The notes beneath the pieces were generated by a model. It saw only the letters and a list, made by a program, of their open reading frames with translations, made no database searches and was not told the origin of the DNA. Shown here piece after piece: positions 13,821 to 14,265 of a stretch of 64,000 bases of DNA. Source of the DNA: a virus. Its lineage: Duplodnaviria; Caudoviricetes. Positions within the stretch are counted from its first letter, which is position 1; every line of letters begins with the position of its first letter. The stretch covers positions 44,874 to 108,873 of the IMG/VR virus record IMGVR_UViG_2608642293_000001; one strand, written 5' to 3'. Made by a program: the position numbers and the translations under genes.

Positions 13821-14246
13821 TCATAGAATATTATATTCTTTTAATAACTTATATTTATCTCTGCTTACATTATTAGAACCATTTTCCCAACTGCACCAAG
13901 CTGTAATGCTTATATTAGTGAGATTACATACTTCCTTTATAGATAAGTTATTTTGTTTTCGATAGTTTAATAACTTTTCACTAGAGTTATTTGTTTCCTC
14001 CAAATATGTATCGTAAAAATATTTCGTATCAAGATTGAAGTGAAGAGCTAATTTTTGTGAGATTTCTCGTCCAGGTAATTTTCTACCTAATTCAATATCT
14101 TTTATACATGATCCTTTACTAAAACCAACTATTTCAGCCAATTTATCTTGAGTTAGGTCATTTTTTAATCGATGAAATTTTAACTTATCACCTATAGTTT
14201 TGCCAAAATCAAACATATTAATTTTATATGTAGTTAGAATGTTCAT
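13821..14246 (-). CDS. Tandem double XRE-HTH protein at prophage 1 terminus
   Basis: Two HTH units (LTQDKLAEIVG..IKDIELG; LSIKEVCNLTNISITAWCSWENG); ATG lies in the junction. Confidence 0.75.
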   Translation of the reverse strand: MNILTTYKINMFDFGKTIGDKLKFHRLKNDLTQDKLAEIVGFSKGSCIKDIELGRKLPGREISQKLALHFNLDTKYFYDTYLEETNNSSEKLLNYRKQNNLSIKEVCNLTNISITAWCSWENGSNNVSRDKYKLLKEYNIL

Positions 14247-14265
14247 GGATTTCCTGTTGCATCTG
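14225..14265. other. Attachment junction between cotJC and prophage 1 (crossover near CCATG, ~14244)
   Basis: cotJC frame ends at AAT CCA TG|A; phage-type sequence beyond. Confidence 0.7.

Follow-up and report, generated by a model that had tools for sequence, protein, structure and literature searches.

A double helix-turn-helix reading frame at a cotJC prophage junction: probable C-terminal module of a large serine integrase, severed by integration

The window analysed here is a stretch of 64,000 nucleotides, the last 64 kb of the 108,873-base provirus record IMGVR_UViG_2608642293_000001 (IMG/VR; Caudoviricetes), and it holds parts of two prophages inserted in a single host gene, cotJC. The product, CotJC, is a spore coat protein of the Mn-catalase family with 189 amino acid residues. 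The subject of this report is a 141-residue open reading frame (ORF) encoding two predicted helix-turn-helix (HTH) domains, which lies at the end of prophage 1 and abuts a piece of cotJC left between the prophages. A preliminary description of this DNA had proposed that the insertion couples the cotJC stop codon to the HTH ORF, and that the product could be the directionality factor or trigger in an ordered cascade of prophage excision. Its picture of two prophages was right; the first runs to 14243 and the second starts at 14403. The features at the locus are as follows.

13821..14246 (minus strand): double-HTH ORF, 141 residues, from the ORF list and Pfam; the last 141 codons of the integrase ORF in the reconstructed viral form of prophage 1.
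14244..14251 (minus strand): prophage 1 core, AATCCATG on the minus strand, common to both prophage 1 junctions.
14252..14255 (minus strand): AGGA, 5 nucleotides before the ATG; host bases, within the cotJC Thr-Gly codons ACA GGA.
14244..14402 (minus strand): cotJC middle piece, approximately residues 62-114 of the 189-residue protein, stranded between the two prophages.
14377..16056 (minus strand): int2, the large serine recombinase gene of prophage 2, 559 residues; its last codons and stop lie inside the cotJC middle piece.
1..14243 (no strand assigned): the rightmost 14.2 kb of prophage 1, with a lysis cassette (1107-2407) followed by accessory genes.
14403..64000 (no strand assigned): the part of prophage 2 in the window; int2, structural genes, Septu defence genes and a lysis cassette at 56990-58290.

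The identity of cotJC is sound. The 48-codon frame upstream of the HTH ORF is 98% identical to residues 63-114 of intact Clostridium beijerinckii CotJC, and the DNA match to the C. beijerinckii gene spans 14401 to 14244. In a prophage-free strain that carries the same species label, RNA reads map to 14244-14402 alone and continue into intact cotJC on both sides, which sets the boundaries of the piece at 14244 and 14402. When the host sides of the junctions are joined an uninterrupted CotJC is obtained, and the reads of the prophage-free strain show exactly this sequence. The minus strand from 14255 to 14241 reads AGGA AATCC ATG AAC, with a spacer of 5 nucleotides before the ATG. The cotJC frame closes as ...T-G-N-P-stop, its TGA (14245-14243) lying inside CCATGAAC and overlapping the ATG (14246-14244) of the double-HTH ORF, so that the overlap and the upstream AGGA in the preliminary description are confirmed. 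The crossover dinucleotide would be AA (14251-14250).

Prophage 1 extends for about 59 kb leftwards from position 14243 of the window to the first ~45 bases of the record, which are the start of the cotJC C-terminal piece. Its integrase gene, int1, lies at this far end of the record (1686..1, minus strand; 561 residues), with an S24-type repressor gene as upstream neighbour; it stops within the first bases of the C-terminal piece of cotJC. The product has the Pfam domains Resolvase (E 6e-37), Recombinase and Zn_ribbon_recom; the last two are also present in int2 and in the homologues P0004 and P0151. Residues Y11 S12 R13 K14 S15, which form the Y-x-R-x-S motif, are invariant in all nine aligned relatives, and S15 is presumably the nucleophile. 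Read from both junctions, the attachment site fits what is expected for a large serine recombinase, namely short phage and host sites (~40-50 bp) with a central dinucleotide and a palindromic phage attachment site (attP). The far end of prophage 2 and the N-terminal piece of cotJC are absent from the record, and a search of two genomes with int2-like elements for the last 5.7 kb of the window, or for a second copy of the N-terminal junction, gave nothing useful.

The preliminary description had remarked that in the excised circle the HTH ORF could be fused to the prophage 1 integrase, and had suggested reconstructing attP and reading the frames across it. Joining the two phage sides gives a single open frame of 688 residues with no stop, in which int1 is in frame with the HTH ORF. 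In the integrated state the int1 frame reads ...DNMQLDSSSES, then Met, then 13 out-of-frame cotJC residues (a 14-residue tail in total), and the HTH ORF opens on that same Met codon (MNILTTYKINMFDFG...). The probability that 30 random codons of this composition are free of stops is 0.05. In global alignments the reconstructed 688-residue ORF is 66.6%, 62.1%, 59.6% and 55.1% identical to P0168, P0185, P0151 and P0004, respectively, with zero gap columns at residues 520-580 in all four.

The centre of symmetry of the reconstructed attP is the AA of the host GGA-AAT, flanked by the inner arms GTTCA and TGAAC; L102, an IMG/VR locus with a natural attP, has the same centre. Given this symmetry, CCATGAAC falls in the right arm of attP. 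With attP inside a coding frame, the product of the viral form differs from that of the prophage. The arrangement recurs in two related prophages, G001 (L059 and L086; integrase 62% identical) and G002 (L073 and L085; integrase 65% identical), where the integrase frame also enters an HTH homologue in frame and the linker has the same length as in the prophage 1 join.

Fused proteins of this kind were found in sequence databases. When 1.84 billion representative proteins were scanned by HMMER for relatives of the HTH ORF, 478 matched at E <= 0.001 and 36 at E <= 1e-10, most of the close ones being 133-166 residues long. Among the best 120 of 1,256 clusters of int1 homologues, nine are fused integrase-HTH proteins of 676-712 residues with HTH Pfam domains (P0168, P0177, P0179, P0184, P0185, P0151, P0210, P0004 and P0261), the other 111 being 480-579 residues long; all nine derive only from metagenome or read assemblies. 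P0004 (676 residues) carries Resolvase, Recombinase, Zn_ribbon_recom, HTH_19 and HTH_3 domains, and the match to the HTH ORF is at 541-670. Its 90% cluster contains seven members of 676-682 residues and one of 544 residues, in which the same ...RES is followed by an out-of-frame cotJC tail; judged by its sequence, the 544-residue member is the integrated form of the P0004 phage lineage. An out-of-frame cotJC tail ends all 14 of the split forms inspected.

The fused form also exists as viral DNA. Locus L102, in the interior of a contig of 54,415 bp, encodes a 688-residue open frame that is closely related to the G001 prophage (integrase 98.7% and HTH part 99.3% identical), and its attP equals the phage side of L086 (79/79 bases) joined to that of L059 (80/81). 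Relatives of the HTH ORF were found at 14 loci in IMG/VR by an alignment-based scan, a single-protein scan having given none. At 11 of these the ORF lies no more than 82 nucleotides from a contig or provirus end, one of the remaining loci is a fusion, and two are internal with frames limited by stops. None of the prophage copies seen has a disrupted HTH ORF. A word-index search, a method of limited sensitivity, did not return longer homologues, which the full HMMER scan did find; a tblastn search of 50,697 phage records gave only two weak partial matches, one to a repressor and one unannotated, and three metagenome runs (X3-X5) yielded only cotJC and int2-like contigs and nothing from the HTH ORF.

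The possibility that the fused ORFs are assembly artefacts was considered and rejected, as the attP of L102 matches the junction halves of an independent genome and the fusions occur in nine separate clusters.

There is in addition a second branch of orphan double-HTH proteins of 149-166 residues (P0005, P0007, P0010-P0012 and P0020-P0024; loci L104-L106). These start with a Y-x-S/T-T-x-F-W motif, like the last beta-hairpin of the recombinase, and P0261 (712 residues) is their fused counterpart. Judging from these sequences, the two branches seem to be cut at different points of the integrase ORF, the second one apparently further upstream.

The HTH ORF matches the Pfam families HTH_19 (E 3e-16, in two stretches) and HTH_3. 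An AlphaFold2 model built with 19 homologues has a predicted local distance difference test (pLDDT) score of 90.8 and consists of two XRE-like helical domains, with residues 1-9 disordered. By fold and family the module is a tandem HTH of the XRE/Cro-CI type, predicted to bind DNA. The best Foldseek matches of its domains are P22 c2, 434 Cro/repressor, SinR and HipB (E 0.007-0.1); none reached E <= 0.001, and all are generic XRE-type domains. The PDB matches of a sequence profile of the module are likewise generic XRE regulators. In the model of the fused protein P0168, pLDDT falls below 50 at residues 534-547, which is the position of attP in the reconstructed and natural forms. This segment lies between the last beta-hairpin of the recombinase (513-529) and the confidently modelled HTH module; long helices at 375-498 fit the inserted coiled coil of large serine recombinases.

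The site of recombination is therefore inside the integrase reading frame, in a flexible-linker stretch between the recombinase body and two XRE-type HTH domains. We consider it very likely that the double-HTH ORF is not a gene in its own right and is instead the C-terminal module of the prophage 1 integrase, cut off by integration at attP, with a change of integrase isoform as the result. Integration into cotJC at the Gly-Asn-Pro-Trp codons splits the integrase frame in two: int1 retains the recombinase body and gains the 14-residue out-of-frame cotJC tail, and the HTH part stays behind at the other prophage end, beside the cotJC middle piece. The fusion in the excised circle, raised in the preliminary description, is thus strongly supported by the 688-residue frame, by the related prophages and by the natural fusions.

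The same junction had suggested an autonomous HTH gene that is coupled to cotJC by the ATGA overlap, acts as a directionality factor or trigger of excision and can be reached only after prophage 2 has excised. The overlap and the AGGA do exist, the ORF does run in the same direction as cotJC, the geometry lets a cotJ transcript reach the ORF only with prophage 2 gone, and sprB of SPbeta is an earlier example of a directionality factor controlled by sporulation (PMC4191935, PMC5499854). The junction is, however, variable. The codon that is ATG here is TTG in L073 and TAT in L059, the cotJC frames of these two loci stop 3-4 codons further on, and the ATGA overlap is found in this phage alone. 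Across ten sequences the linker residue is Met in four (G000, P0168, P0185 and P0004), Leu in P0177, P0179, P0184 and G002, Tyr in L102/G001 and Lys in P0151. The AGGA is not conserved either, since the Thr codon in the C. beijerinckii reference is ACT (ACT-GGA). The TGA is the right-arm stretch of attP, CCATGAAC, read in the cotJC frame, and the ATG is one attP linker codon, so that the overlap, although real, is by comparison of these sequences incidental, a by-product of the insertion site and no purpose-built switch.

The gene int2 lies directly upstream on the same strand, and no intrinsic terminator is predicted between its stop (14377) and the ATG, so that transcription of the HTH ORF need not await the exit of prophage 2, and excision of prophage 2 is not the sole gate. 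The two integrases are only 38% identical and use different sites, which makes independent excision the default expectation. A directionality factor fused to the integrase would, in addition, favour excision just when integration is needed (an argument drawn from PMC5737554). Together with the finding that the ORF is the tail of the int1 frame, this makes an autonomous, cotJ-driven directionality factor and an ordered excision very unlikely. What stands of the preliminary description is its observation of the junction and its remark on the fusion; the directionality factor and the excision cascade do not.

An ordinary stand-alone regulator that starts at Met11 (MFDFG) under its own promoter, an option which the preliminary description had also raised, would make the open frame across attP accidental. 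Met11 immediately precedes the first HTH domain, a placement shared by many XRE proteins, and gene callers give stand-alone forms of 133-166 residues. It is kept, however, in only two of the five closest homologues, and no Shine-Dalgarno-like motif precedes it. No promoter-like site was found on the minus strand within the cotJC piece upstream of either Met, the nearest one (14206-14177) being inside the ORF. In locus L059 the stretch from the junction to the first HTH domain lacks any ATG, GTG or TTG, and natural fused ORFs are present in nine clusters and one viral contig. An independent regulator of this kind is thus extremely unlikely.

Downstream of the ORF there is one further feature that bears on its expression.

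13785..13821 (minus strand): strong stem-loop and U-rich tail at the stop codon of the HTH ORF; -21.5 kcal/mol, z -7.5, 0 of 200 shuffles as good.

This hairpin is likely to be the terminator of a repressor-int-HTH unit of the circular phage, and it is absent from the listing of a consensus terminator scan. A compatible addition to the severed-module explanation is that the orphan tail is nevertheless made at junctions that by chance provide a start codon, as this one does, either by read-through from int2 or from the cotJ promoter after excision of prophage 2, and acts in trans on the integrase or on phage DNA. In line with this are the AGGA-5 nucleotides-ATG arrangement, the lack of a predicted terminator between the int2 stop and the ATG, the strong terminator after the ORF, and the intactness of the ORF in all prophage copies. 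Against it, the start is not conserved, and a module required after excision would keep its ORF intact in any case. We regard this addition as unlikely; in lysogens the orphan fragment is probably not expressed, or translated only by accident.

Several points weigh against the integrase-module explanation or limit its reach. For this phage itself the fused form is a reconstruction that joins the two ends of a single record, and its nearest natural counterpart has 66.6% identity to it. The equal linker lengths are constrained by attP itself, and the three prophages are relatives, so that the shared frame is inherited and not the product of three independent events. The junction does create an AGGA-5 nucleotides-ATG in this host, so the orphan ORF could be translated, and gene callers list stand-alone forms of 140-141 residues (P0001 and P0002). 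At L044 a 7.9-kb non-phage element, with an integrase 51% identical to int1, occupies the same cotJC site without an HTH module, its excised-form ORF having 571 residues. The module is therefore dispensable for recognition of the site and for catalysis, and is an accessory of the phage lineage. A role in directionality would be by analogy with SPbeta (below); the Foldseek and PDB matches are to generic Cro/CI/XRE domains only.

Because attP is within the ORF, integration would switch the integrase from a long viral isoform (688 residues, with the HTH module) to a short prophage isoform (561 residues). The Pfam domains of int1 are intact, and the prophage form is hence predicted to be an active recombinase. 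We infer, as the preferred reading, that the change of isoform would alter the regulation of the integrase. The recombination directionality factor (RDF) of a serine integrase binds DNA-binding domain 2 and the coiled-coil hinge, stimulates recombination between attL and attR, and inhibits that between attP and attB. With the HTH module at its C-terminus, the viral isoform could be rendered integration-only or self-regulating, for example by being tethered to phage DNA, and the prophage isoform would stay responsive to the directionality factor. In the SPbeta integrase, residues 530-545 (including F532) contact the RDF and are essential for excision and largely dispensable for integration (bioRxiv 10.1101/2025.01.03.631226), which by analogy only would place the HTH module near the docking region of the directionality factor. 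It has been suggested that C-terminal extensions block the RDF site, and RDFs are described as having no common sequence family (PMC12286644).

A stronger version, which is possible but doubtful, is a covalent toggle in which the HTH module occupies the docking region of directionality factors and makes the 688-residue form integration-only, being either blind to the directionality factor or self-repressing, and in which the cut at attP yields a form of 561 residues that can be switched to excision. Where cotJC codons create a start at the junction, as in this host, the orphan HTH protein would also be made from the sporulation-specific cotJ transcript after the upstream prophage has left, and would feed back. 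If this were true, the feedback of the orphan HTH protein on excision would rescue part of the ordered cascade.

The host gene is a recurrent target. In Bacillus subtilis, cotJ is a sigma-E mother-cell operon, and prophage 1 has the properties of an intervening element of a sporulation gene, as it is inserted in cotJC and its precise excision restores the frame. A tblastn search with intact CotJC, covering 80 loci retained from 135 relatives, showed the gene to be interrupted after residue ~113 at eight loci (L010, L012, L013, L019, L020, L044, L059 and L073) and before residue ~62-65 at six (L004, L005, L006, L007, L017 and L051); at the remaining 66 no interruption is seen in the portion available. 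cotJC thus holds two separate recurrent attachment sites across Clostridium, and both are occupied in this record. The inserts range from 8-kb cargo elements to phages of ~59 kb, and cotJC has been named a frequent integration target (bioRxiv 10.1101/2021.11.22.469490, citing Abe et al. 2013). In elements at the other cotJC site attP is also in the 3' end of the integrase gene; the excised forms gain only ~26-27 codons (L005) or ~20 codons (L006 and L098), and no HTH is present in these reconstructed attP forms.

The non-phage element at the cotJC site of prophage 1 (L044:10132-18040) carries cargo ORFs of 624, 411 and 716 residues. In the G006 assembly, one locus at the end of a contig (L095, contig C79) reads through an empty cotJC site and another at the start of a contig (L004) is an integrase-cotJC junction. 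The presence of both shows that the sequenced culture was mixed, with the element in and out, and does not indicate the timing of excision.

Other genes of the two prophages were noted in the window. In prophage 2, an ImmA-like protease and an XRE repressor are encoded at 16085-17133, and a Septu-type pair at 54640-56657 (plus strand; PtuA, E 4e-156; PtuB, E 3e-92; PADLOC) lies just before the lysis genes. A holin-like and endolysin cassette of ~1.35 kb is common to both prophages (1050-2450 and 56933-58333, plus strand). The two copies are 93% identical over 1.4 kb aligned, in direct orientation and 55.9 kb apart, so that a single homologous recombination event between them would take out int2 together with the HTH ORF and the middle piece of cotJC. 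Accessory proteins encoded by prophage 1 include a ParM/Alp-like actin at 7747-8682 (plus strand; ALP_N, E 2e-13) and a 781-residue protein at 10053-12398 (plus strand) with a weak match to TrwB/coupling-protein-like ATPases, which would amount to plasmid-like segregation or transfer hardware inside an integrated phage. Near the end of prophage 1 there is a divergent pair at 13146-13762, a 75-residue XRE protein (minus strand) and a 68-residue ORF without a family (plus strand), with a promoter-like site (10/12, extended -10) between them at 13471-13499. The pair may be a second switch-like module.

Large serine integrases are valued tools for genome engineering, and their choice of direction is under active structural study. 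A family found in nature with attP in the integrase ORF would show DNA topology rewriting the C-terminus of an enzyme, and offers a ready-made pair of isoforms. There is also a practical consequence: integrases mined from such prophages are chimeras of a truncated body and a host-coded tail, the viral enzyme being ~125-135 residues longer, and the orphan tail is annotated by gene callers as a 'helix-turn-helix transcriptional regulator'.

Among the closest known systems, the skin element in sigK, SPbeta in spsM, gin in gerE and yin in yabG are likewise large-serine-recombinase elements in sporulation genes whose precise excision restores the frame; the present case differs in that two elements with different integrases occupy two recurrent sites in one gene of 189 codons. 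Engineered integrase-RDF fusions and the C-terminal 'toggle' of SPbeta indicate that a module at the extreme C-terminus can set direction (PMC5737554; bioRxiv 10.1101/2025.01.03.631226). Unlike those fusions, which are man-made and use a known RDF, the fusion described here is natural and its module is of the XRE type, with a role in directionality suggested by analogy. In the abstracts and passages covered by the literature search, no large serine integrase was found described that is severed at attP or carries a C-terminal XRE module.

The integrase of the Myxococcus phage Mx8 is a tyrosine recombinase, as is that of the mycobacteriophage BPs system. In Mx8 (IntP/IntX) attP is also in the integrase ORF, and the prophage integrase acquires a new 3' end and altered properties (PMC6070905); there a short C-terminal stretch is swapped, whereas here a large serine recombinase would lose a whole 141-residue tandem-HTH module, which is left as an orphan ORF. 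In BPs, where attP is in the repressor gene 33, a shorter prophage isoform and a longer viral isoform are likewise produced and behave differently (PMC4557955). Unlike in BPs, where the repressor is split and loses a 33-residue degradation tag, it is here the integrase that is split, and a folded module of DNA-binding type that is lost. The 'suicidal' integrases of SSV-type archaeal elements also have the site in the integrase ORF, and integration splits the gene; they are tyrosine recombinases of which both halves are inactive pseudogenes (PMC7253208), whereas in int1 the catalytic body and both DNA-binding domains remain whole. An attP within an ORF, with consequences for the isoforms, is already known from Mx8, BPs and SSV.

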